Below, piece by piece: positions 6,225 through 30,390 of a DNA stretch of 37,068 nucleotides. Origin of the DNA: a bacterium (GTDB taxonomy: Bacteria > SZUA-182 > DTGQ01); assembly GCA_040752695.1 (NCBI GenBank), contig JBFMGO010000048.1, positions 1 through 37,068 of the forward strand, written 5' to 3'. Each line of letters opens with the position of its first letter. Positions within the stretch are counted from its first letter, which is position 1. A program made the translations under genes and the position numbers. The notes beneath the pieces are model-generated. The model was not told where the DNA came from and made no database searches. It was given only the letters and a program-made list of their open reading frames with translations.

Positions 6225-7112
6225 TCATCTTCCGTGCAATGGTTCCCATGGGATCACTACCCGTGGGATTTCACCACGGAGGCGGCCTGCTTTCTTATCA
6301 TAGAATCTTACGGTATAGATTCCGGGAAACAAACCGGCAATGGCAATGGTAAGATCATAGTCACATATGCAGCGGCATCCATCTCCTTGCAGCTTCTCAT
6401 CCTCGTAAATCCTGATGATCATATCCGCCATGTCTATCGTGTTCATCGTTACGGCAATCTCTTCGATGCAGCAGTTATATGAAGCGTTACTGTGAAATAG
6501 ATAAAGCAGGTGGTCCTCCTGGTAATCAGCGGTAAATTCCTCATTTTCTCCGGGCGATCTGACAGGCTCTCCTGTACATCCGCTGTTCTGGTAATGCAGG
6601 ATGTAGGCATCGGCATCCGCTGCCGGCATAATTCTGATTTGTGCTGTTGCAATATGCCCGAAGCTATTGGTCGAAGTCAAAAAAGCCCTTATCGTATAAA
6701 ATCCTGGAGGCACCGTCACATTGTGGTCATCTGTCTGATTCCACTGAACTTGGAACCTTTTCGTTTCTTTGGGTTCCAGTTCGAGTGTGCCAAGAACCAT
6801 AATATATCCTCTATCAGCGGAAAACTGCCAGACTTTGATACCGATTGCGTTCCTGATTACTGCGTCGAATTCTCTGCTGGTATTAAAATTGAGTGTAACC
6901 GGCTCCTCCTTTGGATTGGTCACCTCGTAGGTAATCTCCACAGGTTGGCCCTGGGTGTAAACGGGCTGGTCAGTGACAACGGTTGATTGCAGCCTGACCA
7001 CCTTCGGATGAAGACGGTTGGCGAGAGGGAACGTGCCGGAATCATACCCTCTGGCGGTTGCCAGTGCAGTAACGATGCAGATCAGGCCCAAGGCCAGAAA
7101 CAGCCGTTTCAT
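6225..7112 (-). CDS. Secreted protein with BsuPI-like (proteinase inhibitor) Ig domain and Cys-rich C-terminal domain
   Basis: Signal peptide; TLNFNTSREFD...VWQFS...LEPKETKRF..QWNQTD...VPPGFY matches the BsuPI pattern. C-terminal YNCC and CRCICDY motifs. Confidence 0.75.
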   Translation of the reverse strand: MKRLFLALGLICIVTALATARGYDSGTFPLANRLHPKVVRLQSTVVTDQPVYTQGQPVEITYEVTNPKEEPVTLNFNTSREFDAVIRNAIGIKVWQFSADRGYIMVLGTLELEPKETKRFQVQWNQTDDHNVTVPPGFYTIRAFLTSTNSFGHIATAQIRIMPAADADAYILHYQNSGCTGEPVRSPGENEEFTADYQEDHLLYLFHSNASYNCCIEEIAVTMNTIDMADMIIRIYEDEKLQGDGCRCICDYDLTIAIAGLFPGIYTVRFYDKKAGRLRGEIPRVVIPWEPLHGR

Positions 7113-7409: not shown

Positions 7410-10400
7410 TCATTCCCCTCTGAGCAGAATTACCTTTTCTATGGGATAGCCGTAAGGTTGGGTATCGCTGTCGGCAGACTTTTCCAGGGTAATCACATTA
7501 TTCTCCCTATAGGTTTGCATATCGATCGCCTTGATTTTGGCATCGGATATGGTGTAGAAGTTATTACCGATGTAGATGATCCTTCTGATATCATTCTCAC
7601 CGCCATAGTAGTAATAGCCCGCTTTCTTGAATTCCTCGTCACTATCATAATGGGTTATGGCGGCTTTTTTCTCGAATCCGCTGGTTAAATCGATATGGTA
7701 AAAGTAGGCTCCCTGGAAGGTGTATTCATAATTACTGTAAGTGTCTTTCGCGTCTTCAATCTTTTGGGTAACGGTAACGGGGAAGGCCATGAGGTTCTTG
7801 TCCTTGCTGAATAACAGGGCCTTATGGTCTGTCAGCAGTTCAGACTGGGTATTCCGGTAGCCGATAATCTCCTGGTGCAATTCAACGGGGTGGGTAACAT
7901 CGGTAACATCAAACAGGGAGATTTTCATGCCCAATATGGCTGTGTAGTAAACCGCATTGGCCGAATGTATTTTATCGGCATCGATACTGGCATCAACGTC
8001 ACGGCCAAAGCCGATCAGGTGGTTCTCATCATAAGGATGCAGGTATTCACTGTATCCCGGAATCTTCAACTGCCCGAGGATCTGCGGATGTGCAGGATCT
8101 GCGAGCGAGACGACAAACAGGGGATCGACCTGCAGGAAGGTCACCACATAAGCCTTATCTCCCATGAATCTGACCGATTTGATGCTCTCTCCGGGAGCGA
8201 TGTTTTCAATACTTCCCACCTGTTCCATGTTGCCGTTCAAGACGTAGAGATTATTGCTTGATGGATTACTCTCATCCCAGGTGTATCCCTTGGTAGTGGC
8301 TATCCTGAAATGGTTGTCGTACTCATCCATGGAGAACTGGTTAATAATCGTTCCCGGTACCCTGGCCTTGCCTGCATACTGGATTGTCTCTTCATCAAAA
8401 CTGAATTTATAGACCTGGGTATTGGGGCTGTTCGAATACCCGGCGACAATCCTCTCAGGCGCAGCAGAAGCAGCAGCAGCGGCGGTACCATCGTCGTCCT
8501 CATCCGTATAGGTAGTACGGGCAACGAACAGATTATCGAGCGATGCGTACACGTTCTGGCTCGATCCCAAAATGACCTCTTTGCCGATTGCTCCATCAGG
8601 ATCGTCGACAGGTATGCCTACCACGACAAGGTAGGTGGATTCGGTAGATCCGGGAAAGTAAGACACCTGCTCGCAGTCACAGATAGCCTTATCGGCCTTG
8701 TCGTTCGAGGATCGAGCGGAATCGGCATACTTGGGAATCATTGTTTCGGGAGTATCCGGGGAAACAGAAGTCCCGGCACCCAAAAGAACGGGATTCGTGT
8801 CCACAGGTACGGGAATATATTGAGCGTACTGGTTCATGACCACATAGAGAGTATCATCCACTTTCCTCGATTGCAGATAGGTTCCTTCAAACTTGAGATT
8901 CCTCTTCTCTTTCACGCTGGCCCGGTTGGTTATATCGTATATAATTACCCTGGTGAAAGAAGATCGCGGTATATAGTAGGGTGAATAATAACCAGGAGCA
9001 CGGATTGCAGTGGTCATAATACTCACATCCCCGATCGGGGAGCTGTTACTTTCTTGAACCGGCTCATAATCGTTTCCGATAACGATCAGGGTATCTCCAT
9101 CCACATATAATTGATTGGGGGTGAAGGTATCCTTTTCGTAGTCAATCTTGGGATACTCCTTCATCTCACTGGCAGGATAGGCTTTGATGATCCTGACGCT
9201 TCTCCCTTTTATCATATAGATATAGGCACCATCGTTCTTGATCCGGTCAGCTTCATCCACGCCGGCTACCTGAACGTTGGTGGTCGAGTAGTCGTCCGCA
9301 CCACTGCCGCCGGTAGAGGCGGTGGTAGAAAAAGCGGCTACCCGTGTACCATCCAGCGCAGCAGCTTCAGGGGCCATTCCATAGGCCGCATAATACCCTA
9401 TATCCTTCGAAGAGGAATTGGTTATTTCATTCAACTTCTCCCGCAGCTTGCTGCAACTGGAAAATCTGGGTAAAATTCCCGTTGCCGCAGTACCGCTTTC
9501 AGTAATAGTGATCTGGGTGGAAACAGTCTGGGCATAATTCTTGTCATAAGCGGTCAGGGAGGCTTCTATCGTATAGGTGCCCGCTGGTACTGGCGTGTGG
9601 TGATTGTCTGTCTGGTCCCAGTCGGTATGATAACTATAGGATTTTCCTACTTCCAGTGTGCGATTGGTGAAGGACTGGGCAAAGCGCTTTTCATTAGACC
9701 ACTGCCAGACCATAGCCTTCGAGCTGTCTTTGATTACTATGTCATATTGTTGACTGGAACTAAATACGATGTCAACCGCATTCTTATCCGAATTGGCTAC
9801 GGTAAAAGTGATCTTTACCGGCTCTTGCAGCTCATACTCAGCCTTATCGGTTTCAACTTTGTAGTCCAGTTTGCCAGTCCTCGGAACGCGAGGTGTGGAA
9901 TATTTAATATCAGTAAAATTGAGGCCGGGCAAGATACTTCCCTGTTGCGGGAAAGAATAACTGGCCGATGTCCTTGGATAGGGAGAAAGTTGAGGAGTGT
10001 AGAGAGAAGGGAGTTGATTATTATAGGAAAACTGATTCCCGAGGGAAAGCTGTGATGCCGGATTTCCGAAGGGATAAGGCGAAACTGGAGAGTAAGGTGA
10101 AGCGTACGAAGGAGAGGAATAAGGCGAAGTATATAGGTTAGCAGAATATGGGAAAATGTTTACTGATAAATTGATGGAAACAGGTGAGGTTGTCCATGAA
10201 GATACCGGATTGGTGCTCCAGAGTGACGCCGTGTTCAGGGGTGAAGAGTAGGAGGACGATGAGGATAGCCAATTCATGGGGTTGGACAAATCGCTGGTGG
10301 ACCAGCCACCAATAGTAGCTACGTTATTATATGGATTGAAGCTGGGGGGCTGATATAGTTGCGCTGTTGAACTGCCTGCAAGCAGGCAAAATCCTGCCAG

Positions 10401-10439
10401 CAGAACAACGACGAGAGATGTGACAATAAATTTTTTCAT
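7410..10439 (-). CDS. Secreted protein: Ser/Pro/Tyr-rich N-terminus, BsuPI-like domain, C-terminal beta-propeller (Beta_propel family)
   Basis: ATG at 10439 follows GAGGAGG; signal peptide. BsuPI: FSSSQQYDIVIKD...VWQWS. Propeller family motifs: YSTTNVQVAGVDEAD, NQFSMDEY, VTFLQVDPLFV, LKIPGYSEYLHP. Confidence 0.88.
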   Translation of the reverse strand: MKKFIVTSLVVVLLAGFCLLAGSSTAQLYQPPSFNPYNNVATIGGWSTSDLSNPMNWLSSSSSYSSPLNTASLWSTNPVSSWTTSPVSINLSVNIFPYSANLYTSPYSSPSYASPYSPVSPYPFGNPASQLSLGNQFSYNNQLPSLYTPQLSPYPRTSASYSFPQQGSILPGLNFTDIKYSTPRVPRTGKLDYKVETDKAEYELQEPVKITFTVANSDKNAVDIVFSSSQQYDIVIKDSSKAMVWQWSNEKRFAQSFTNRTLEVGKSYSYHTDWDQTDNHHTPVPAGTYTIEASLTAYDKNYAQTVSTQITITESGTAATGILPRFSSCSKLREKLNEITNSSSKDIGYYAAYGMAPEAAALDGTRVAAFSTTASTGGSGADDYSTTNVQVAGVDEADRIKNDGAYIYMIKGRSVRIIKAYPASEMKEYPKIDYEKDTFTPNQLYVDGDTLIVIGNDYEPVQESNSSPIGDVSIMTTAIRAPGYYSPYYIPRSSFTRVIIYDITNRASVKEKRNLKFEGTYLQSRKVDDTLYVVMNQYAQYIPVPVDTNPVLLGAGTSVSPDTPETMIPKYADSARSSNDKADKAICDCEQVSYFPGSTESTYLVVVGIPVDDPDGAIGKEVILGSSQNVYASLDNLFVARTTYTDEDDDGTAAAAASAAPERIVAGYSNSPNTQVYKFSFDEETIQYAGKARVPGTIINQFSMDEYDNHFRIATTKGYTWDESNPSSNNLYVLNGNMEQVGSIENIAPGESIKSVRFMGDKAYVVTFLQVDPLFVVSLADPAHPQILGQLKIPGYSEYLHPYDENHLIGFGRDVDASIDADKIHSANAVYYTAILGMKISLFDVTDVTHPVELHQEIIGYRNTQSELLTDHKALLFSKDKNLMAFPVTVTQKIEDAKDTYSNYEYTFQGAYFYHIDLTSGFEKKAAITHYDSDEEFKKAGYYYYGGENDIRRIIYIGNNFYTISDAKIKAIDMQTYRENNVITLEKSADSDTQPYGYPIEKVILLRGE

Positions 10440-10662
10440 TGTTACCCCTCCTCTCGGAAGTTGATACGACAGCAATATTGATTAATGATAAGAATATTAT
10501 CCATGAGCAGTAACCATTACTCTAAAAATGACTATTCGGGAGAAATAGCCCCCATGAGAAATAACCATAATGAGCGAACAGGCTATCAGGAAAATAGCTA
10601 TTAAAGAGCGAATAATCATCCAAACCTGAAAGAAAATCCTTACCTGAAAGAAAATCCTTCTC

Positions 10663-21016: not shown

Positions 21017-24000
21017 GTGAGGAGAATGTATTTGATGTACCGTATGATTTTACAACAAAAAAAATTCATTGGTTTACCTATGGACCAGGACCAATGTGCA
21101 GATAAAACTGACAAGACTGATAAAACAGATAGAACTGATAAAACGGACAAAACCGATAAGTCCGGTAGCGCGCATGCCAGGGCTGGTAAGTCCGGCAGCA
21201 CCCAGGTTAAGGCCGACAAAGACGGTGACGGTGCCGCTGAAGGGTCTGCAAAAATCACTATTCTGAATGTGGATGACAATGAGGCAGGCCGCTACGCAAC
21301 CAGCCGGCTATTGAAAAAAGCGGGATTTGCGGTCAAAGAGGCTGCGACCGGTCAGCAGGCCCTGCTCATGGCCGCTGTCGAGCAGCCCGATTTGATCATC
21401 CTCGACGTTCACCTGCCGGATATGAACGGCTTCGAAGTCTGCCGTCGCATCAAGTCCGACCCCGCGACAGCCCTCATCCCTGTCCTGCATTTGTCGGCAA
21501 CCTACCTGGACAGCCAGTCCAGGGTAGAGGGCCTCGAGAGCGGCGCGGATAGTTATCTGACACAGCCGGTGGAGCCGATGGTACTGATTGCCACCATCAA
21601 GGCCCTTTTGCGGATGCGTGCAGCGGAGTCTCAGGTGACGGTTGCAGCCCGGCAGTGGCAGGTTACTTTTGACACCATCAGCGACGGCGTTTGCCTGCTG
21701 GATCAGGAAGGGAAAATCATACAGTGCAACCGCTTCATGTTGAATCTTCTCGGACAGCCAGAGTCTGAAATTGTTGGCCGAAGGTGCAGTGAACTCATTG
21801 AGTGCCCCTGCCTCGATCCTGAAGGAGCCTGCTTTAAGCGCCTGCGAGAGAGCGGCCAGCGGGAGTCTTTCGATTGGCAGACTGGAAGCCGGTGGTTTCG
21901 TATAAGCCTGGACCCGGTCCGGGACGAAGCGGGCCGTCTGGCCGGTGCTGTCCAGATCATGACCGACATCACCGCGCAAAAACAGGCACAAGAAGATCGC
22001 GAGCGGCTCAACGAGTTGCTGGAGGCCGAGCGGGCACGCTTCGAGGAGGTGCTTAGACAGATGCCAGCCGGTGTTATTATCGCCGAGGCGCCCTCAGGCC
22101 GGCTCGTACTGGCTAACGAGCAGGTGGAAAAAATCTTCCGGCATCCTGGCTTGATGTCTTCTGATGTCGAGCATTACAGCGAATGGAAAGGGTTTCATCC
22201 CGACGCCAAACCCTATCAGCCCCATGAGTGGCCGCTGGCGCGATCTGTCCGCGAGGGTGAGGTTATCATCAGTGAGGAAATCGATATCCTTCGCGGTGAC
22301 GGCACCCATGGCACCATAAGCGTCAGTGCTGCACCGATCAGGGACGTCGAAGGACACATTATGGCGGGAGTGGCGACTTTCTCCGATGTTACCGAAGCCA
22401 GGCAGGTGCAGAAGGAATTGCGGCTCTACAGACATCACCTCGAAGAGCTGGTGAAGGAGCGCACGATCGAGCTTACCGCTGCCAATGCGCAGCTTCGCCG
22501 TGAGGTTACTGAGCGCAGGCAGGCAGAAGCCAGACTGCGGGAGTCGGAATCGAAGTACTCGACCGTGGTCGAGCAGGCCAGGGACTGGGTGTTCATTATA
22601 CAGGATGGGATTTTTAAATTCTCGAATCAGGCCGTCTACGAAATAAGCGGGTATCTGGTGGAAGAGATCATGGATAAATCCTTTTTGAATCTTGTATCAC
22701 CTGAATTCAGGGATCTTGTCGGTCAAAGATATGCCCAGCGCATGAGCGGTGAAAACCCTCCCTCTTCCTATGAGGTAAAAGTGCAGCACAAAGACGGAGC
22801 GACCAGGGATGTGGAAGTATCCGCCAGGGTTATCCAGTACCAGGGAAAACCTGCCGACATGTGTATTGTGCGCGATATCACGGGGCGCAAAAGACTGGAG
22901 GAGGAAATGCAAAAAGCACAGCGGCTTGAATCGATTGGAGTTCTGGCTGGCGGAATCGCCCATGACTTTAATAATATCCTGACCTCTATTATCGGCAATC
23001 TTTCTCTGGCCACCATGCTTGCCAAACCTGGAGACAGGATTTCCAAGCTGCTGGACGGGACGGAAAAGTCAGCCTGCCGGGCCAGGGATCTGACCCGGCA
23101 GTTACTTACTTTTGCCAAAGGCGGAGCGCCGATCAAACAAACCGCTTCAATTTCGGAACTTCTCAAAGATACGACAACCTTCTCTCTGAGAGGGTCAAAA
23201 GTGAAGGCCGAATTCTCTCTGGCCGAAGATCTCTGGCCGGTTGAAGTCGATACCGGACAGATAAGCCAGGTTGTTAATAACCTGGTCATCAATGCCAAAC
23301 AGGCCATGCCAGAAGGGGGAATAATCAGGGTGACTGCCCAAAATGCAACCATCGGACACGAAGAGAACAAGGTCGATATCCCTCTGGAAGAAGGCAGGTA
23401 TATAAAAATATCGGTGGAAGACCAGGGTGCCGGTATACCGGATGAACATCTCCAGCGAATATTCGACCCTTATTTCACCACCAAGGAAACTGGAACAGGG
23501 TTAGGTCTGGCCACCAGTTATTCAATTATCAAACGGCATGAGGGATATATTACCGTAAAATCACAGCCAGGGGTTGGAACAACATTCTTTATCTACCTCC
23601 CTGCCTCGAAAGAAAAAGGCAAGACTGCATCAACGGTTCAGGAAGAGGAAGCGGGATTACTGAGCGGCCAGGGGAGAATCCTGGTCATGGACGATGAACA
23701 AATCGTCAGAGACGTTGCCAGGCGGATGCTCGAGTTTATCGGTTATGAGGTCGAACTGGCAAGAGATGGTGCTGAAGCTATCGCCTTATACGAAAAGGCT
23801 CGAAAATCCGGTCACCCCTTTGATGCGATCATCATGGATATAACGGTGCCAGGGGGAATGGGAGGCGAAGCGGCCATACGGAAACTGCGTGAAGTTGATC
23901 CCAAGGTCAAAGCCATCGTGTCAAGCGGCTATTCCAGCGATGCCCTTATGGCTGATATAAAACGGTCCGGCTTCAGAGGCATTATCGCCAAACCATACAA

Positions 24001-24049
24001 AGTCACAGAACTAGCCAGGGTATTACAGCGGGTAATAAAGGGCAAGTGA
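21017..24049 (+). CDS. Hybrid histidine kinase: REC, three PAS, HisKA, HATPase, REC; start uncertain (21017, 21035 or 21080)
   Basis: ILNVDDN...LDVHLP; three PAS/PAC ends (TDIT, SDVT, RDIT); GIAHDFNN; NLVINA, DPYFTTK, GTGLGL; ILVMDDE...MDITVP. N-terminal DKT repeats. Confidence 0.93.
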   Translation: MRRMYLMYRMILQQKKFIGLPMDQDQCADKTDKTDKTDRTDKTDKTDKSGSAHARAGKSGSTQVKADKDGDGAAEGSAKITILNVDDNEAGRYATSRLLKKAGFAVKEAATGQQALLMAAVEQPDLIILDVHLPDMNGFEVCRRIKSDPATALIPVLHLSATYLDSQSRVEGLESGADSYLTQPVEPMVLIATIKALLRMRAAESQVTVAARQWQVTFDTISDGVCLLDQEGKIIQCNRFMLNLLGQPESEIVGRRCSELIECPCLDPEGACFKRLRESGQRESFDWQTGSRWFRISLDPVRDEAGRLAGAVQIMTDITAQKQAQEDRERLNELLEAERARFEEVLRQMPAGVIIAEAPSGRLVLANEQVEKIFRHPGLMSSDVEHYSEWKGFHPDAKPYQPHEWPLARSVREGEVIISEEIDILRGDGTHGTISVSAAPIRDVEGHIMAGVATFSDVTEARQVQKELRLYRHHLEELVKERTIELTAANAQLRREVTERRQAEARLRESESKYSTVVEQARDWVFIIQDGIFKFSNQAVYEISGYLVEEIMDKSFLNLVSPEFRDLVGQRYAQRMSGENPPSSYEVKVQHKDGATRDVEVSARVIQYQGKPADMCIVRDITGRKRLEEEMQKAQRLESIGVLAGGIAHDFNNILTSIIGNLSLATMLAKPGDRISKLLDGTEKSACRARDLTRQLLTFAKGGAPIKQTASISELLKDTTTFSLRGSKVKAEFSLAEDLWPVEVDTGQISQVVNNLVINAKQAMPEGGIIRVTAQNATIGHEENKVDIPLEEGRYIKISVEDQGAGIPDEHLQRIFDPYFTTKETGTGLGLATSYSIIKRHEGYITVKSQPGVGTTFFIYLPASKEKGKTASTVQEEEAGLLSGQGRILVMDDEQIVRDVARRMLEFIGYEVELARDGAEAIALYEKARKSGHPFDAIIMDITVPGGMGGEAAIRKLREVDPKVKAIVSSGYSSDALMADIKRSGFRGIIAKPYKVTELARVLQRVIKGK

Positions 24050-24167
24050 GAAGTGAGTACTTTAGTGTCACATATTCATGTCATTTGAGAAGCTGAATGA
24101 CATGAATATGTTTAACGGCTTGTACATTATAGGTGACCTGTACATTCTTATACATTATAGGCATGGA

Positions 24168-24205
24168 GAACGGCTTGTGCATTGCATGCACAAGCCGTTC
24201 GTTTT
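24168..24205 (+). terminator. Terminator between the convergent kinase and A2M genes
   Basis: 14-bp perfect inverted repeat gaacggcttgtgca/tgcacaagccgttc followed by gtttt. Confidence 0.75.
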
Positions 24206-24273
24206 GGAGTCCGGCCAACCGGTCAATATGAAGCCAGCCCGACAACCGGCTAATACACAGTCAGTACTACCGG

Positions 24274-27200
24274 TCAATACACGGTCAGTACTACCGGCTC
24301 GGCCTCATCCTTGATATCCGGGTTATAGTAATCGTAGGCCGTGGATTTTGGTGTCGATACCTTAAGCGGGTATTTGGCCTTAAGGCGATAGGGAATCGAC
24401 ACCGGTTTGTCATAAGAAACCGGGTTCAGATACAAGGTGAGCTGGCGATTGGTCGATTCGTACTTGACGATTTTCCCTTTCTCGATGGCCTGATCGAAAT
24501 CCTCGTAAAGGACACTGAATCCCGGTGGTATTCCGAGGTCCACCATACCCATGCGGGTGACCGTATTGGATTGGTTGTTCCTGACCGTTACCGTACAGAG
24601 GATGGTATCGTCAACAGTCAGGCTCTTTTTGTCGTAGTCAAGGTCTATAGACAGAGGCGGGACCGATGGCGTCAATTCCACCTTTTTCCAGGGCAGATAA
24701 TAGGTGCCGGTAATCTGGTAGATGAGACTTCCCTCTCCGCTCAGACTGAGGCTAACCGTATTATCACCTTCCACCGTATAGGGAGCAAGATTGATGATTC
24801 TCACGATCCGGCTGTCAACCGGTTTTACCTTCAGGATAGGCAGATCATCTTTATCGAGGGTCTGGCCGTTGATCGTGATACTGATTTCCCCATTCATCGC
24901 TCCTTTCTGGCCGCTCATGGCCATAATCATCACTCTGAGGGAGAGGACCGTAGCCTCCACCTGACCCCAGAGGCCGAAGGCGTCCTTCTTTTGGAAGAGA
25001 TAATTCAAGACCTTGTCAATGGTATTGGGATAACGCCACTGGGCCTTGATCAGGGCATAGGCAATCATGGCCGTAGTCTCAAGGTCCAGATAGTCTCCCT
25101 TCGAGTAGGTCAGACTTTCCTTCTCCGCCGAAGTCCAATGGACCGTATCTCCTTCCTCGATCTTTCTTTCCTCGATCTGGTCAAGGATAGCGAGCCCATC
25201 AACGTCCCTGGGATCGCCTTCGAGCAAAGCGTTGGCGCAAAGGGCCAGGGTATAGGTATCGGTTGTGCTCTTTATCTGCCCTCTGATATAGTTCTGGCCC
25301 GACTTGATGGTCATGCTGTTCGCTGCATAGCCTGAATGGATCATGGCCCAGGTAGCATAGGCTGTGGCCTGAAGGGTATTGTTCAGTGCATTGAAAAGGT
25401 CCCGGTCATCCGGAGGCCAGGAGCCATCCGATTTTTGCTTTCCAGCCAGCCATTGCTGGGTTCTGCTGATCAGGGCAGGATCGACAAAATGGACCCGCGC
25501 CATATCGCTGAATTCCATCAGGCCGTAAGCGGTCAGAATGGGTTTAGCCGGTCCCTTGCCGTACCAATCGAAGCCCCCGCCCTGACACTCAAAGGTCAGG
25601 AGCCTTTGATAACCAAGGTTGATATACTGCTGTGCCTTCATCTCGATTTCCGGAGTCAACTGATTTGTGCTCTTCATGTAGTCGAGTACTAAAACATTCG
25701 GCCACGTCACCGACGTGGTTTGGCAAAATCACCCATAGGGGACATGGAAGAGATTGTCCAGACCCTCCACAACCTGACTGAACAGGCAAGGGTAGACCCT
25801 GACCAGGATCCTGCTGGCATCGTCAATGGCCTCAAGGGGAATAGCGATCACCTGAGTAGCCTCCTTTTCTTGCAGGCGCTCGCTGACATTGACCTGAGAT
25901 TCCAGCCCATTGGGCAAAACTTCGATCCTGCGGGACAGGGCATCACTCATCCTGGTTCCATAACCGAATACGGTCAGTTCATGCCAGCCCGGTTTTTGCG
26001 CCTTGATCCGGAAATGAACAGCCGTAACCTGCCCCGGCTCGATGCGAAGCACTTTTTCCTGCTCATCTTTCAGTTCAAACCAGGGCAGGGAATCTCTCTG
26101 ACCTGACACCTGGCCCGGCTGGCTCGCCTGATCCGATTGGCTTACCTGGTCGAGTTCATCCACCAGCCCCACCACCTCCTGGTCCGCCAAATCCGCCTGA
26201 TCCGGCTGATCCATCTCCAGCTTTACCCGCACGGTCTGGGCTTCTCCAAGGTAATTGTATACTGCCACGGGCAGGGAGATCTCGTCATCCTGAGTAAGGG
26301 TTGCAGGAAGATCAAGGTCGATAAAGAAGTCCTGGAAGACAACGATTCCGTCTGTTCTCCCGCCCAGTTTACCGTCAAGGGCCGATGCCGTTGTGCTCAT
26401 GCGCCAGGTGGTGATGGAGTCTGCCATATTGGCATCGAGATATGCCCTCCCGTTCTGATCGGTAATCAGAGCAGGCTGCCAGAGGAGGGTTTCGGGGAAA
26501 TCCCGCCTGATCTTTCGCGGCTCCTGGACATTTTCCGCTGCTTGATCCTCATGAGAGCTCTGCCCTCCTTCTCCTCCCCCTGCGACCGGGGACAGATAGC
26601 CGGGCTGGGTTTCCGGCTCTCCGGAACCACTCGCCTGGCCGCTGCTATAGCCACTACCGCCAGCGCTATAAGCATAACCAGCGTAACCGCCGCCACCTCC
26701 AGCACTGTAACCGGCACTATAACCACCGCCGCCACCACCACCGCCAGCACTGTAACCGGCACTATAACCACCGCCGCCACCGCTGTAACCGACACTGTAA
26801 CCGCCGCCACCACCATAGGCAGTATAACCTCCGCCACCCCCGCCGGCAAGGCCGCCATAAATGCCACCACCGCCAATGCCAAGATAACCACCAAGATACC
26901 CGCCAAGATACCCGCCAAGATAGCCGCCATACAGGCCATACACACCGACACCATACGGGCTCCCCCCCGGACCACTGCCGGTATACGGAGCGGTCTTGGG
27001 TGCGGCCGGGTAGTATTGTTTGGTCAGTTGCAAGTCATCGGCCGTGTTCTTCACCTCGTCAGGGCCCCAACTGGTCAGGATTAGCTGGTAGTTACCCACT
27101 TGCAGGGCATAGGGATTGCCCCAAGGATCAAGATACCGCTTGATCATATCCTGATCAAGGGCGTTATCATAGGCATAAGTATAATAAATATTCAGCTTGC

Positions 27201-30200
27201 CCAGGTCCTTGGCTATTTTATCTGCATCAGTATCAATGGGGGAAATCAGGGTTTCCCTCATGCGCTGGATAAGTTCGGGGAAGCTACTTTCGTTCAGTCC
27301 CGGATCAGGGGGCTCTTCCAGATCGGCAAAAACCACCTCTGCCGCTTCCTGAATGTCGGGGACGGGTTCTTCACTGGTGACCGCATCTTCAAAGGGAACC
27401 AGAAGCGGCCAAAAGCGCGGCTTCATGATCTCCTCTTCCATGCTGAAGAAGACCTTGAGTAGACCGGGCTGATTCTCCTGGAGCGCATAAACCGCCTCAT
27501 CCACGATGGTGATCCCTAAGGCTGCGGGCTGGGCAGGAGTGACCTGGAAATCGATCCGGGCCCGCTCACCCGGCAGATACTGATCCTTATCCAGAGTGGC
27601 TGAAATCCGGATCTCATCGGGCTGATTGACATAAACGATTTTTTTATCCCTGAACACATCCGAAGCCGTATCCCTGGCACCCGAGATGTAATATGCCTCA
27701 ACCATAAGGGTCCCTGCCATGTCGCTGTCCAGGTCAACCAAAAGACTCCCTCGGCCGTTGAGGATATCGACCCCAGTGGTCAGTACGGTCTTTTGGTCCC
27801 TGATCAAATCCACAAAAGCCCTTCTCGCTTCAATTTCCGGAGTGTAAAGGTCAATGGTCATAGTCTGGCCAACGGTATAAATGGCCTTATCGGTGCGAAG
27901 GAGAATGCGGGCATCCCTGCCTCCGGTGACTGCTATGTCCGCCTCAGTTGTCTTGCCACCTGCGCTGGAGGAAACATGGAGAATCAGGGGTTCGTTCGGA
28001 TCGGAATCTGGATCTGGGGTCAGGGTAAACTGCCCAAGTCCCTGCTCATCCGTACTTACCTGCTGATGGATACGGGAGCCCAGGCAAACCACTGTATTCG
28101 AGGTGGCCAGTCCCTGCCCCTTGGGATCGGTAGTCATGATGTAAATAATATTTTCCACTCCCGCTACTATCTGCCTGCTTTCAGGAATGAGGCGAATGTT
28201 GATCGGAGTTTTGGTAACAGTCAATTCCCTGGTCATCTTCTCTTCATGGCCCGCAGAATCTCTGACCATGATATCCAGCCTGACCAGGGCGTCTCCCTGC
28301 TCCAGAGGATGGCCGACAAAATAGCTGGGGAGGCTCAGATCAAAGGTAAAGAATCCTTCATCGTCGGTCAATCCTCCTATGGCCTGGAAAAGATTGAAGT
28401 TAACATCATACTTGTAGGCATCAACCGTAACCTTGGCCTGAGTAACCGGCTTTCCGAAAAGATACTTGGCCTGGATCGTCCCCTGGACCTGGTCGCCGGG
28501 CTGGTAGTATTCTGCGTTGGTCTTGAGTTCGACCTTGAATTTGGGCAGCACGTAGCGCTCGACAGTCACCTTCTTCTCCGATGTGGTTGACTGGCTGCCT
28601 TCGCCCATTACTGCCCTGACCGTATACAGGCCCATATTGATATCCGTACCAAGGACAAAGTCACAACAGGCCAGGCCGAAGCTGCTGGTCTTTGGGTCAA
28701 CCCTGAATACCTTGTTCCCTTTGGAGTCCTCAACCTCGATGATCATGGTTTGATCGGCGGCAGGCTCAAGATCGGGTTTTTCGAGGGTGAGAGTACGGAT
28801 ATGAATCGTCTGTCCGGGCTGATAGAGTGGCTTGTCAGTAGTCAGGAGAACCTTGTGCAGGCGCACAACCTCGATATTTCGCTCAAATTCCTCAGTCCCG
28901 AACGAGGATGTCACCCTGAACCTGATCTTGGCAGTATCTCCGGCACTTTCAGGGATAGTCAAAAGTGCCTTGGCCAACCCTTCATCATCGGTAATTCCCT
29001 TGTAGAGGCGGTTTGGATTATTTTCCCTGATCAGGTCAACCGTAACCTGCGCATCTTCAATGGGAGAGGAATCCCCCTGCACGAAGGCATGAACACTCAT
29101 ATATGTGGGTTCTCCGGCAAAGAAGGAATCCGTGCCATTGACCCTGACCTCCATCTTGTCCGCCAGGTAGAACAGGCTCTTCTTACCGCTCAACCCGAGC
29201 CCGCCTCCACTGAACTGATACTCAAGAATATACCTGCCAAAATCCTCGGGTTTCGTCCCTGCAGGAACTCCGTTCAGTTTCAAAAGATAGCTCTTTTCCC
29301 CAGGCTCAAGGGTCAGTTCTTCCCTCTGTCGGCTGATTTCATTCTTGTCCAGGTCGAGCAGGGTGAGAGTGATCTGCCCCAAGACCGGTTTTGACGAACT
29401 GTTTTTCAATGGCAGCCTGATGGAAACCTTGGAACCAACTGCTGCCGGAGATTGGGTAAGGTTTTGGAGCCATGCCCCGGAACCTGCTCCCGCCCAAGAC
29501 CACAAAGACCCTGTTCCTGAAGTCCAGGAAGTGACAGGAATCAGCGAACTGGCAGTCCACCCTCCCGACTGGCCGGGAAAAGAAAGAGAAGGGGAAGAGA
29601 AGAGGGAGGATGATGTCGGGTATGGCGTATACGTGGTCACCAGTGATCCAAGCAGGCCGCTGGAGCCGAATCCAACCGTGGATGATGAGAGCACGGGAGA
29701 GAGTACAGGGGAGAGTGCGGAAGAAGTCCATAATAAACTCGAACCATAAAGATCGGCTTCCGTCGCTAGCCGGTTGCGCACCTTCGGCTGAATGTAATCA
29801 CAATCAACGCGATCAAGAAATTGTGGCCCGAAAGGGCCAAGCAGGTAAAGACACCCGTTTTCCACACTGATGTCATCGGGCCCGGAAGGCAGGTCAACGG
29901 ACCACAACAAGAGAGGATCATACGGCAGAGTCAGGTCTATGGCAGCAAGACCCCAGGTGGTTCTTTCCCTGTCTTCATAGGCAACATAGGCCCTTTGCCC
30001 TCCCGCAGCCGCTGCACTCTCTATTCCCTCACACATACCGGCTACGATATATTTGCTGCCTGCGAGGGGGTAGACAGCAATCAGGGTCGGGAAAGCGTCC
30101 AGATTCTCCGGCGAATTTTCCAAACTGAAAATGCGAAGTCCTGAGGCTTCATCGGCTTGCAAGAGGAGATTTTGACAGATCCTTGCAGATTCATATCCTT

Positions 30201-30390
30201 GCGCTGCAGATTCATATCCTTGCGCTTCTGCCTCAAAAGTGCAGGGGATAAGGCTTTTGGCCCGTATCCCAGGTTCATAAAAGACCGAGGAGGCGGTGGT
30301 CAGGCTTAAAACCGCCATGATCCATCCCAACTCTTTCACCATTCGCCATAATACATGCCGACCGGCTTTTGGTCGAATAATTTCCTTCAT
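24274..30390 (-). CDS. Alpha-2-macroglobulin family protein, 2038 aa, with in-frame UGA (probable Sec1554) at the thioester Cys position
   Basis: ORFs 25729..30390 and 24274..25710 are in frame; the junction reads VPYG-TGA-FCQTTSVTWPN. MG motifs: TDKPLYQPGQT, ERYVLPKF, RRDFPETLLW, ADSITTW, FQDFFIDLDLP. TED: GYQRLLTF...LTAYGL. C-terminal MVDLGIPPGF, YDYYNP. ATG follows AAGGAG. Family assignment is firm; Sec is inferred. Confidence 0.9.
25702..25718 (-). promoter_or_regulatory. Putative bacterial SECIS hairpin of the A2M gene
   Basis: mRNA CCACGUC-GGU-GACGUGG, a perfect 7-bp stem at +11..+27 after the UGA, with a G-led, GU-containing loop. Confidence 0.72.
26620..26985 (-). repeat. Gly/Tyr/Ser-rich repeat region of the A2M (bait-region position)
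   Basis: GGYL x3 (12-bp unit) and GGGGGYSAGYSA x2, just upstream of RRDFPET. Confidence 0.85.

Follow-up and report, generated by a model that had tools for sequence, protein, structure and literature searches.

Thioester proteins of the alpha-2-macroglobulin (A2M) family, including human A2M, A2ML1 and CD109, insect TEP1 and complement C3 and C4, share one domain order and one thioester domain (TED) fold, with the family motif P-Y-G-C-G-E-Q. Type I bacterial A2Ms, such as E. coli ECAM/YfhM and Salmonella Sa-A2M, are lipoproteins with a CLEQ motif and a pbpC gene as neighbour. Selenoproteins that pair selenocysteine (Sec) with a resolving Cys are exemplified by thioredoxin reductase, with its G-C-U-G motif, and by CxxU and UxxC proteins of thioredoxin fold. 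We found no Sec-containing A2M in the published literature, and macroglobulins go unmentioned in the text and the one supplementary file consulted of a bacterial selenoprotein database that covers 111 families.

The window, by which we mean the whole 37,068-nucleotide stretch of bacterial DNA analysed here, encodes a macroglobulin whose domain order and TED fold are those of the thioester A2M family and whose motif aligns with P-Y-G-C-G-E-Q residue for residue; it differs in being bacterial, in its Sec and Cys swaps, and in a 121-residue Gly/Tyr-rich insert before the A2M domain. With type I bacterial A2Ms it would share not only a bacterial origin but also export, a protease trap of monomer type and a motif of the CxEQ class; unlike them, it has no lipobox evident by eye at its N-terminus, and no pbpC (PBP1c-like) gene was found in the window or beside four related loci. 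At E <= 1e-5 the protein matched 30 PDB sequences, every one eukaryotic, and no type I bacterial A2M is among them. As in resolving-Cys selenoproteins, Sec would lie no more than two residues from a Cys, making a selenenylsulfide possible in principle; in contrast to them, the fold is a TED toroid, the spacing is U-x-C and Sec would occupy the acyl-carrying position, and we see neither a thioredoxin-like fold nor a reductase fold carrying CxxU, UxxC or CU.

The window protein also has counterparts in Sec macroglobulins of environmental bacteria with the motif U-F-E-Q, which have the same UGA codon, family and architecture, and whose hairpin matches that of the window gene in core sequence, in distance and in the T/S-T-S-V-T codons that form it. 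These proteins are about 40-45% identical to the window protein, and both trees set them apart as a clade of their own, with backbone support of only 88-93.

Architecture of the macroglobulin gene

The 2038-residue frame occupies 30390..24277 on the minus strand and closes with a stop codon of its own, TGA at 24276..24274. Its main features are as follows.

24274..30390, minus strand: alpha-2-macroglobulin family gene, 2038 codons, with a single in-frame TGA read through
30271..30390, minus strand: basic N-terminal stretch, then a hydrophobic one, judged by eye from the translation
26623..26985, minus strand: Gly/Tyr-rich low-complexity insert, residues 1136-1256, with 60 G, 21 Y and 14 S among 121 residues
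24934..25779, minus strand: thioester domain (TED), residues 1538-1819, Pfam PF07678 TED_complement (E 2e-38), spanning the TGA

Pfam searches recovered MG2, MG3, A2M_BRD, A2M, TED_complement and A2M_recep, with MG4 weak; PF01835, PF17791, PF07703, PF00207, PF07678 and PF07677 each passed the cut-off, so that the domain series of the A2M family is present. An AlphaFold2 model of the TED (mean pLDDT 87.2) has the alpha/alpha-toroid fold of this domain, and Foldseek placed it closest to native A2ML1 (7q1y, E 5e-26), CD109 (8s3o) and A2M (7von), with TM scores of 0.77-0.79. The best PDB matches by sequence were likewise CD109 (8s3o, E 5.9e-36) and A2M (7von and 6tav).

The Gly/Tyr-rich insert separates the bait-region domain from the A2M domain; relatives carry weaker versions of it, and it may represent an enlarged bait or a linker. 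The N-terminal stretch is probably an export signal or anchor. Databases file the gene in two pieces split at the TGA, the C-terminal piece of 478 amino acids having its own protein record (P0122). Around it in the window are an upstream beta-helix/PKD protein and convergent histidine kinases; across five loci, neither a thiol-disulfide oxidoreductase nor another conserved partner was found next to the gene.

The U-F-C-Q motif and its selenocysteine codon

Read on the minus strand, 25740..25717 gives CCC TAT GGG TGA TTT TGC CAA ACC, that is, P Y G U F C Q T, and a hairpin follows immediately.

25729..25731, minus strand: in-frame TGA, residue 1554, at the thioester-Cys position; homologs encode Cys (TGY) at the aligned codon
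25723..25725, minus strand: TGC, Cys 1556, at the site of the conserved CxEQ Glu in the motif alignment
25720..25722, minus strand: CAA, Gln 1557, the acyl donor in a canonical thioester, kept here and invariant in the clade
25702..25718, minus strand: bSECIS-like hairpin CCACGUC-GGU-GACGUGG, 7 bp with a GGU loop

Relative to the canonical C-x-E-Q, then, Gln alone is retained, with Sec for Cys and Cys for Glu. A first-pass annotation of this DNA had called the third motif position Cys, which the minus-strand reading of 25725..25723 as TGC bears out, and had taken Glu as the canonical residue there. This too holds: C-F-E-Q is found in 118 of the 120 best full-length homologs and in 110 of 120 shorter homologs, the remaining 10 being C-terminal pieces that lack the motif. 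The annotation went on to argue that the change from GAR to TGC, needing three base substitutions, pointed together with the TGA to selection; the arithmetic is correct (GAR and TGY share no base), but the argument is weak because the branch leading to the clade without Glu is long (0.46-0.59 changes per site in the tree) and intermediates such as Gly are viable. GGC (Gly), a codon one step from TGC, is present in the nearest relative.

The TGA is shared at the same codon by five U-F-C-Q loci, from four genomes of one order, and by 88 other A2M loci (68 among 77 metagenome matches and 20 among 30 Anaerolineae loci); Cys 1556 is encoded by TGC in three of the five and by TGT in two. The hairpin begins 10 nt downstream of the UGA and is made of the codons for T-T-S-V-T-W. 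All seven pairs form in 5/5 U-F-C-Q loci, against one to four of seven in 34 C-F-E-Q loci for which DNA was compared, and the hairpin has decayed in the two nearest Cys-type relatives, to 3/7 pairs in C-F-T-Q and 5/7 in C-F-G-Q. The same division appears in Anaerolineae, an unbiased homology sample of 301 genomes, where 20 TGA loci have six or seven of seven pairs and 10 Cys loci have one to three. Compensated changes occur in the outer pairs (15-29: UA 41, GU 8, CG 6; 14-30: GC 33, CG 6) and, in locus L172, in an inner pair, where G-C has become A-U. Taken alone, the 66-nt stretch folds with ordinary energy (z 0.16); support for the hairpin therefore comes from comparison and not from energy.

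The source genome has selA, selB, selD (itself with an in-frame TGA) and a G73 tRNA-Sec. It also has two FdhA-like genes in which the UGA is followed, at much the same spacing, by a loop containing GGU. A crude genome-wide screen for TGA followed by a hairpin returned 37 candidates, mostly noise, among which we recognised these two FdhA-like genes and the macroglobulin. Two genomes at 87-88% completeness (G009 and G010) gave no tRNA-Sec match. What characterises bacterial selenoproteins, a UGA aligned to Cys, a conserved and compensated stem-loop, and selA, selB, selD and tRNA-Sec, is found here together. On this comparative evidence the TGA at residue 1554 is predicted to be a genuine selenocysteine codon, in keeping with the earlier view that it is no chance nonsense mutation; the codon is conserved, and a hairpin accompanies it.

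Motif variants and covariation with Cys 1556

Cys occupies the Glu column in 5/5 U-F-C-Q rows, a count that leaves out at least six Sec-type members known as C-terminal pieces (P0124-P0129, P0154), and in none of the 204 others (0/146 C-F-E-Q, 0/55 U-F-E-Q or U-M-E-Q, and 0/3 C-F-T-Q or C-F-G-Q rows). Judging by these alignments, Cys 1556 is no chance feature of the macroglobulin family. Relatives were recovered from genome contigs by searching with alignment A1, a search with the single protein having found none. A pattern search of metagenome DNA gave U-F-C-Q in 0 of 77 matches. JGI-derived C-terminal protein pieces of the U-F-C-Q clade exist nonetheless; their contigs either lie outside the metagenome collection or deviate from the pattern.

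The first-pass annotation had taken TGA and Cys together as a selected redesign of the motif, a proposal that would suffer if C-x-C-Q were common among ordinary Cys homologs with no link to TGA or if other TGA-bearing orthologs lacked the Cys. No C-x-C-Q was found in any Cys-type homolog read, and inside the clade the proposal stands. Outside it the proposal fails: none of the 88 other TGA-bearing A2M loci has Cys in the Glu column, and 87 keep Glu (66 U-F-E-Q and one U-M-E-Q from metagenomes, 20 U-F-E-Q from Anaerolineae), the exception being a U-F-Q-Q in a broken frame. Cys is therefore neither a general requirement nor a consequence of Sec.

The clade without Glu is small and was found in one order, in 4 of the 13 genomes examined. 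All five of its Sec members read U-F-C-Q, and its Cys members have Thr (L015, P0003) or Gly (P0002, L018) at 1556, with no case in the clade discordant with the pairing of Sec and Cys 1556. In the tree, a quick IQ-TREE run with SH-aLRT support only, support of 99-100 unites the window protein with the C-F-G-Q rows, and the C-F-T-Q pair sits on a branch of its own. Since the Sec protein nests with C-F-G-Q and apart from C-F-T-Q, Sec and Cys 1556 must have switched jointly at least twice; the C-F-T-Q pair is placed in a polytomy, so one of the two events could be the original gain.

Column by column, the association is narrow. The five Sec members agree at 186 columns, of which only 1556, 1560 (a hairpin codon) and 1618 differ in both Cys lineages; independent change would yield about 0.6 shared columns (9 x 12 / 186) against the three observed, in a comparison that covers two lineages, with nine sequences in all, and organisms related to one another. 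No other Cys covaries with Cys 1556, C1718 and C1932 occurring in Cys-type members too. The U/C position and Gln are unchanged in 9/9 members of the clade, in which 43% of columns are invariant anyway, and Gln is also invariant in alignment A2.

A proposed selenoester with a partner thiol, and its alternatives

Our preferred reading, which we hold tentatively, is that the UGA is decoded by SelB and that the protein carries a selenoester warhead with Cys 1556 as a Sec-specific partner thiol. We know of no natural protein that contains a Sec-Gln selenoester. SelB, guided by the hairpin, would read UGA 1554 as Sec, and the protein would be exported; residue 1554 and Gln 1557 would still be joined by an internal ester, now a selenoester. 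Cys 1556 would take the place from which the side chain of Glu ordinarily extends to the ester, and may hold the non-acylated selenol as Se-S during export and folding and again after ester discharge. Without Glu, the general base favouring hydrolysis would be missing as well, with a possible effect on the stability of the ester. That the Glu side chain reaches the ester follows from its action on the attacking water, which, in a QM/MM preprint on C3, the motif Glu orients and deprotonates for attack on the thioester (10.64898/2025.12.13.694092). Against a partner thiol, Sec-A2Ms elsewhere keep Glu and lack any clade-specific Cys in their TED, and so would seem to work without one. An unlikely extension of the partner-thiol reading makes U-F-C-Q a redox-switchable or self-protecting warhead, in which the selenoester would be armed only on opening of the Se-S bond with Cys 1556 and the discharged selenolate would be recaptured by the same thiol; Cys 1556 would have been dropped at each reversion of Sec to Cys, since a disulfide within C-x-C would lead nowhere.

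Glu could instead have become dispensable, perhaps through changes at other places in the pocket, of which Tyr to Trp at 1563 is an example, leaving a relaxed site where any small residue fits, Cys is simply inherited and Thr and Gly reflect drift. We regard this as somewhat unlikely, although three small residues (Cys, Thr and Gly) do occur within nine sequences, V1550, W1563 and other clade-specific residues are common to all members, the five Sec members share one ancestor, and Sec-A2Ms elsewhere need no Cys. A relaxed site sits poorly with the place of 1556 among the only three columns altered in both Cys lineages and with the constancy of 1556 in four Sec lineages despite 62-66% identity and turnover between TGC and TGT. 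Rather improbable, in our judgement, is that the ester has been lost or altered, leaving U-x-C as a redox site (selenenylsulfide or selenol-thiol), a soft-metal site or an acyl relay from Se to S. The defining Glu is gone, the model places Cys 1556 at the predicted start of the motif helix, and Sec beside Cys is the usual composition of redox selenoproteins; yet the whole clade, its Cys-type members included, has kept Gln 1557 and the flanking P-x-G and T-T-S-V-T-W-P-N unchanged, an argument for continued selection on the Cys/Sec-Gln pair. Every macroglobulin domain is moreover retained, and no redox partner gene was found nearby.

Two further alternatives concern the codon itself. The UGA might be read wholly or partly as Cys by a second Sec-like tRNA with its adjacent SelB, giving C-F-C-Q. 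On contig C9 of the source genome, a tRNA resembling selC* precedes a second selB, and the sister species G002 also has such a pair; both resemble, in U73, the UCA anticodon, G1:C72 and a selB directly downstream, the cysteine-inserting mimic selC* tRNA-Cys(UCA)/SelB* described by Mukai et al. (Nucleic Acids Res 2017, PMC5389517). Cys decoding is nevertheless very unlikely, as nothing ties the mimic to the macroglobulin hairpin, no Cys-type homolog read encodes C-F-C-Q directly, and the gene type occurs where the mimic was not found: G007 has two U-F-C-Q genes with an identical hairpin, and only a canonical G73 tRNA-Sec, one SelB and SelA were found there. Scarcely credible is termination at the TGA through nonsense mutation, sequencing error or a split gene. 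Gene callers do split the gene and its pieces are recorded separately, but the same TGA recurs in the five U-F-C-Q loci and in the 88 further A2M loci, always with the hairpin, the domain fold continues across it, and the true pseudogene in G002, three fragments within ~800 nt, looks quite different from the TGA-bearing loci.

For annotation, splitting at the TGA yields two hypothetical proteins and hides the family. Sec at the acyl-carrying thioester position would be a use of selenium outside redox catalysis. The occurrence of one scaffold as U-F-E-Q, U-F-C-Q, C-F-T-Q, C-F-G-Q and C-F-E-Q amounts to a natural experiment, in which the roles of Sec, of Glu and of a nearby thiol in forming or protecting the putative (seleno)ester become directly comparable.

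The macroglobulin gene and its thioester motif

The alpha-2-macroglobulin (A2M) family gene occupies a single minus-strand frame carrying the full macroglobulin series by Pfam: MG2, MG3, the bait-region domain, A2M, the thioester domain (TED) and a receptor-binding-type domain. The TED match (residues 1538-1819) extends across the in-frame TGA.

Features of the window
30390 to 24277, minus strand: A2M gene, single frame; stop TGA at 24276..24274
25731..25729, minus strand: TGA, sole in-frame interruption of the A2M frame
26623-26985, minus strand: Gly/Tyr/Ser-rich low-complexity insert of the A2M gene
6225-7112, minus strand: BsuPI (proteinase inhibitor) domain gene
7410-10475, minus strand: BsuPI domain gene

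The codons CCC TAT GGG TGA TTT TGC CAA ACC ACG TCG GTG ACG TGG give the peptide P-Y-G-U-F-C-Q-T-T-S-V-T-W, with selenocysteine (Sec, U) at residue 1554. Among solved structures, CD109 and A2M match best by sequence, and their aligned motif is P-Y-G-C-G-E-Q; compared with it, the gene has TGA in first place, TGC (Cys 1556) in third place instead of the family's Glu, and the canonical Gln in fourth. Because reading and alignment agree, the first-pass description of the motif, TGA followed by Cys at the Glu position, was correct, and the U-F-C-Q motif is a real observation. The TED fold is retained in a model with pLDDT 87.2, in which a helix begins one residue after Sec.

The gene lies behind that of a beta-helix/PKD protein and is oriented towards histidine kinase genes; we found no neighbours common to it and four related loci, and the neighbourhood gives no help in deciding among mechanisms. 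One of the window's BsuPI genes is fused to a large beta-propeller domain. The low-complexity insert, 121 residues (60 Gly, 21 Tyr) between the bait-region and A2M domains, has weaker versions in relatives and may be an enlarged bait or linker. A distant second macroglobulin gene of the same genome (L027, C130:8437-9840), and likewise of G010 from the same order (L026), has a metazoan-style C-G-E-Q-N motif and 22% identity to the TED queried.

Distribution and phylogeny of motif variants

Motif classes across homologs
Full-length proteins, 120 best: 118 C-F-E-Q; 1 C-F-G-Q (P0002, 71% identical); 1 C-F-T-Q (P0003, 68%)
Shorter proteins, 120 best: 110 C-F-E-Q; 10 C-terminal pieces beginning just past the motif
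Species genomes, 38 loci: 32 C-F-E-Q; 4 U-F-C-Q (already known loci); 1 C-F-T-Q; 1 U-F-E-Q (L067)
Metagenome contigs, 77 pattern matches: 66 U-F-E-Q; 1 U-M-E-Q; 1 U-F-Q-Q in a broken frame; 9 chance matches outside any macroglobulin
Anaerolineae genomes, 30 loci: 20 U-F-E-Q; 10 C-F-E-Q
Window's own order, 13 genomes: U-F-C-Q in 4 genomes from three families

Sec with Glu is the rule in Sec macroglobulins, and Sec with Cys is restricted to one small clade; none of the 77 metagenome matches was U-F-C-Q, with a DNA pattern that left both middle motif codons free. The co-occurrence of TGA and Cys anticipated in the first-pass annotation held on one side only: no C-x-C-Q was found in Cys-type homologs among the proteins and loci surveyed, but other TGA-bearing loci keep Glu. 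One C-F-E-Q macroglobulin of this bacterial subfamily (L060) lies on a 6.3-kb contig binned as a Woesearchaeota archaeon, the result of either misbinning or transfer.

Two TED-region trees were computed from an alignment that reaches 110 residues to the N-terminal and 339 to the C-terminal side of the motif, with the Sec/Cys residue masked as X and the Glu-position column kept; dropping identical rows and those with <100 residues before or <280 after the motif left 211. With FastTree on these, the five U-F-C-Q, two C-F-T-Q and one C-F-G-Q rows formed one clade (support 100), sister to a C-F-E-Q paralog of G007, a genome of the same order (98). An IQ-TREE quick search agreed on clade and sister (SH-aLRT 100 and 98); its 51 rows held all clade members plus the partial C-F-G-Q locus L018, L030, two deep U-F-E-Q rows, the U-M-E-Q row, two C-G-E-Q outgroups, and 22 C-F-E-Q and 14 U-F-E-Q rows taken as the nearest plus a random draw. 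The window protein clusters with the C-F-G-Q rows (99-100), the C-F-T-Q pair forms a separate branch (95-97), and the four sub-branches inside the clade are a polytomy. At least two events thus switched Sec/Cys jointly with Cys/non-Cys at residue 1556, whichever the direction of change, and no sequence inside the clade is discordant with this pairing. P0002, 1997 residues long, is intact and C-F-G-Q; the copy in the sister species G002 (L155, G002:C31, about 9834-10640 of the locus) is a collapsed C-F-G-Q remnant in which about 800 nt hold three fragments, corresponding to residues 104-206, 1487-1612 and 1993-2038, with a decayed hairpin (5/7 pairs). This relic argues that the ancestor of the C-F-G-Q copy was Sec-type.

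The main U-F-E-Q clade is separate from the U-F-C-Q clade; since the backbone is supported at only 88-93 and the ingroup base includes two long U-F-E-Q branches, the tree does not decide between one and several origins of Sec. A convergent origin is conceivable, because the hairpin is built from conserved T-S-V-T codons.

Decoding of the in-frame TGA

A 7-bp hairpin, CCACGUC-GGU-GACGUGG, begins 10 nt past the UGA. The folding energy of this region by itself is unremarkable (z 0.16), so the case for the hairpin rests on comparison. All seven pairs form in all five distinct U-F-C-Q loci (the window's genome, two genes of G007, and G009 and G010 of the same order), against 1-4 in 34 distinct C-F-E-Q DNA loci, even with an identical T-S-V-T peptide; the nearest Cys-type relatives have 3/7 (C-F-T-Q, L015) and 5/7 (C-F-G-Q, L018). 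As an unbiased sample, a protein-homology search of 301 Anaerolineae-class genomes matched 36 at E <= 1e-60, with one TGA in 21 of 37 matches; among the 30 loci read, U-F-E-Q loci formed 6-7 of 7 pairs and C-F-E-Q loci 1-3. Pair 15-29 is U-A (41 rows), G-U (8) or C-G (6) and unpaired in none; pair 14-30 is G-C (33), C-G (6) or G-U (1) and unpaired in 15. The five inner pairs are invariant in an alignment of which 49 of 55 rows came from a DNA pattern fixing them; L172, from the homology sample, shows an inner G-C turned into A-U, a compensated change. Other loops than GGU occur in Anaerolineae Sec-type macroglobulins, GUU (L169, L170, L179) and GGC (L181, L183, L184), coupled to peptide changes from V to L or A.

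The window's genome encodes selA, selB, selD and a G73-CCA tRNA-Sec, and two of its FdhA-like genes have loops containing GGU about as far from their own UGA. TGA is otherwise a stop codon there, since the A2M gene itself terminates at TGA. The selD gene (L156, C71:28637-29563) has one in-frame TGA, and its product is probably itself a selenoprotein.

Partial reading of the A2M UGA as Cys is a rival in this genome. On contig C9 (about 23163-25609; L002, L010) there is a second tRNA whose anticodon is UCA, with a U discriminator and G1:C72, and directly downstream of it a second selB copy; the pair recurs in the sister species G002. Its layout is that of selC*/SelB*, which Mukai et al. (PMC5389517) interpret as inserting Cys at UGA. 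Against this reading, G007 has two U-F-C-Q genes and we found there only a G73 tRNA-Sec, one SelB and SelA, so the macroglobulin hairpin is not linked to the mimic. G009 and G010 (87-88% complete) gave no tRNA-Sec match, and SelB or SelA was found. An FdhA-like selenoprotein gene also lies on C9. The case for reading the A2M TGA as Sec is strong, and a broken gene is very unlikely.

Probable coupling of Cys 1556 to selenocysteine

We examined co-variation over the 186 alignment columns invariant in the five Sec members. Nine of them are altered in both C-F-T-Q rows, and the C-F-G-Q row departs at 12; just three changed in both Cys lineages, compared with about 0.6 expected by chance (9 x 12 / 186): 1556 (Cys to Thr/Gly), 1560 (Ser, a hairpin codon) and 1618 (Ile to Val). 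Constraint on codon 1556 at the RNA level seems unlikely, because TGC and TGT are both used for Cys and U-F-E-Q genes have GAA or GAG. No other Cys of the protein co-varies with Cys 1556. The pattern, drawn from two lineages of related organisms, is suggestive of a tie between Cys 1556 and Sec. Six or more further Sec-type clade members are known as C-terminal protein pieces alone, without residue 1556.

In a QM/MM preprint on C3 (10.64898/2025.12.13.694092), the motif Glu positions the water that attacks the thioester and takes up its proton, which puts the Glu side chain within reach of the ester. With the motif Gln retained in U-F-C-Q, an internal ester would still form, now Sec-Gln, and Cys 1556 in Glu's place could act as a partner thiol to the selenol, forming an Se-S bond while the selenol is not acylated. 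When Sec reverted to Cys, Cys 1556 would have been lost, being by then useless, or harmful because a C-x-C disulfide could form. A relaxed site with no Sec-specific role would accommodate the U-F-E-Q Sec loci that lack the Cys, and has against it that residue 1556 is among the three columns changed in both Cys lineages; the proposal that Cys and TGA are a selected pair draws on the joint switches and is weakened by those same loci. Changed chemistry, be it an acyl relay or a redox or metal site, is a further rival. Judged from this small sample, selection probably acted on Cys 1556 and Sec together.

Searching the literature for macroglobulins paired with selenocysteine or selenoproteins brought up unrelated papers only, and the U-F-C-Q variant was not found in the literature searched. 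BSepDB, as published, covers 111 families of bacterial selenoproteins; the text of its paper contains neither 'macroglobulin' nor 'thioester', and one supplementary file none of 'macroglobulin', 'A2M', 'thioester' and 'MG2'. Within a broader, uncatalogued family of Sec macroglobulins that normally keeps Glu, U-F-C-Q is a rare variant specific to one lineage.
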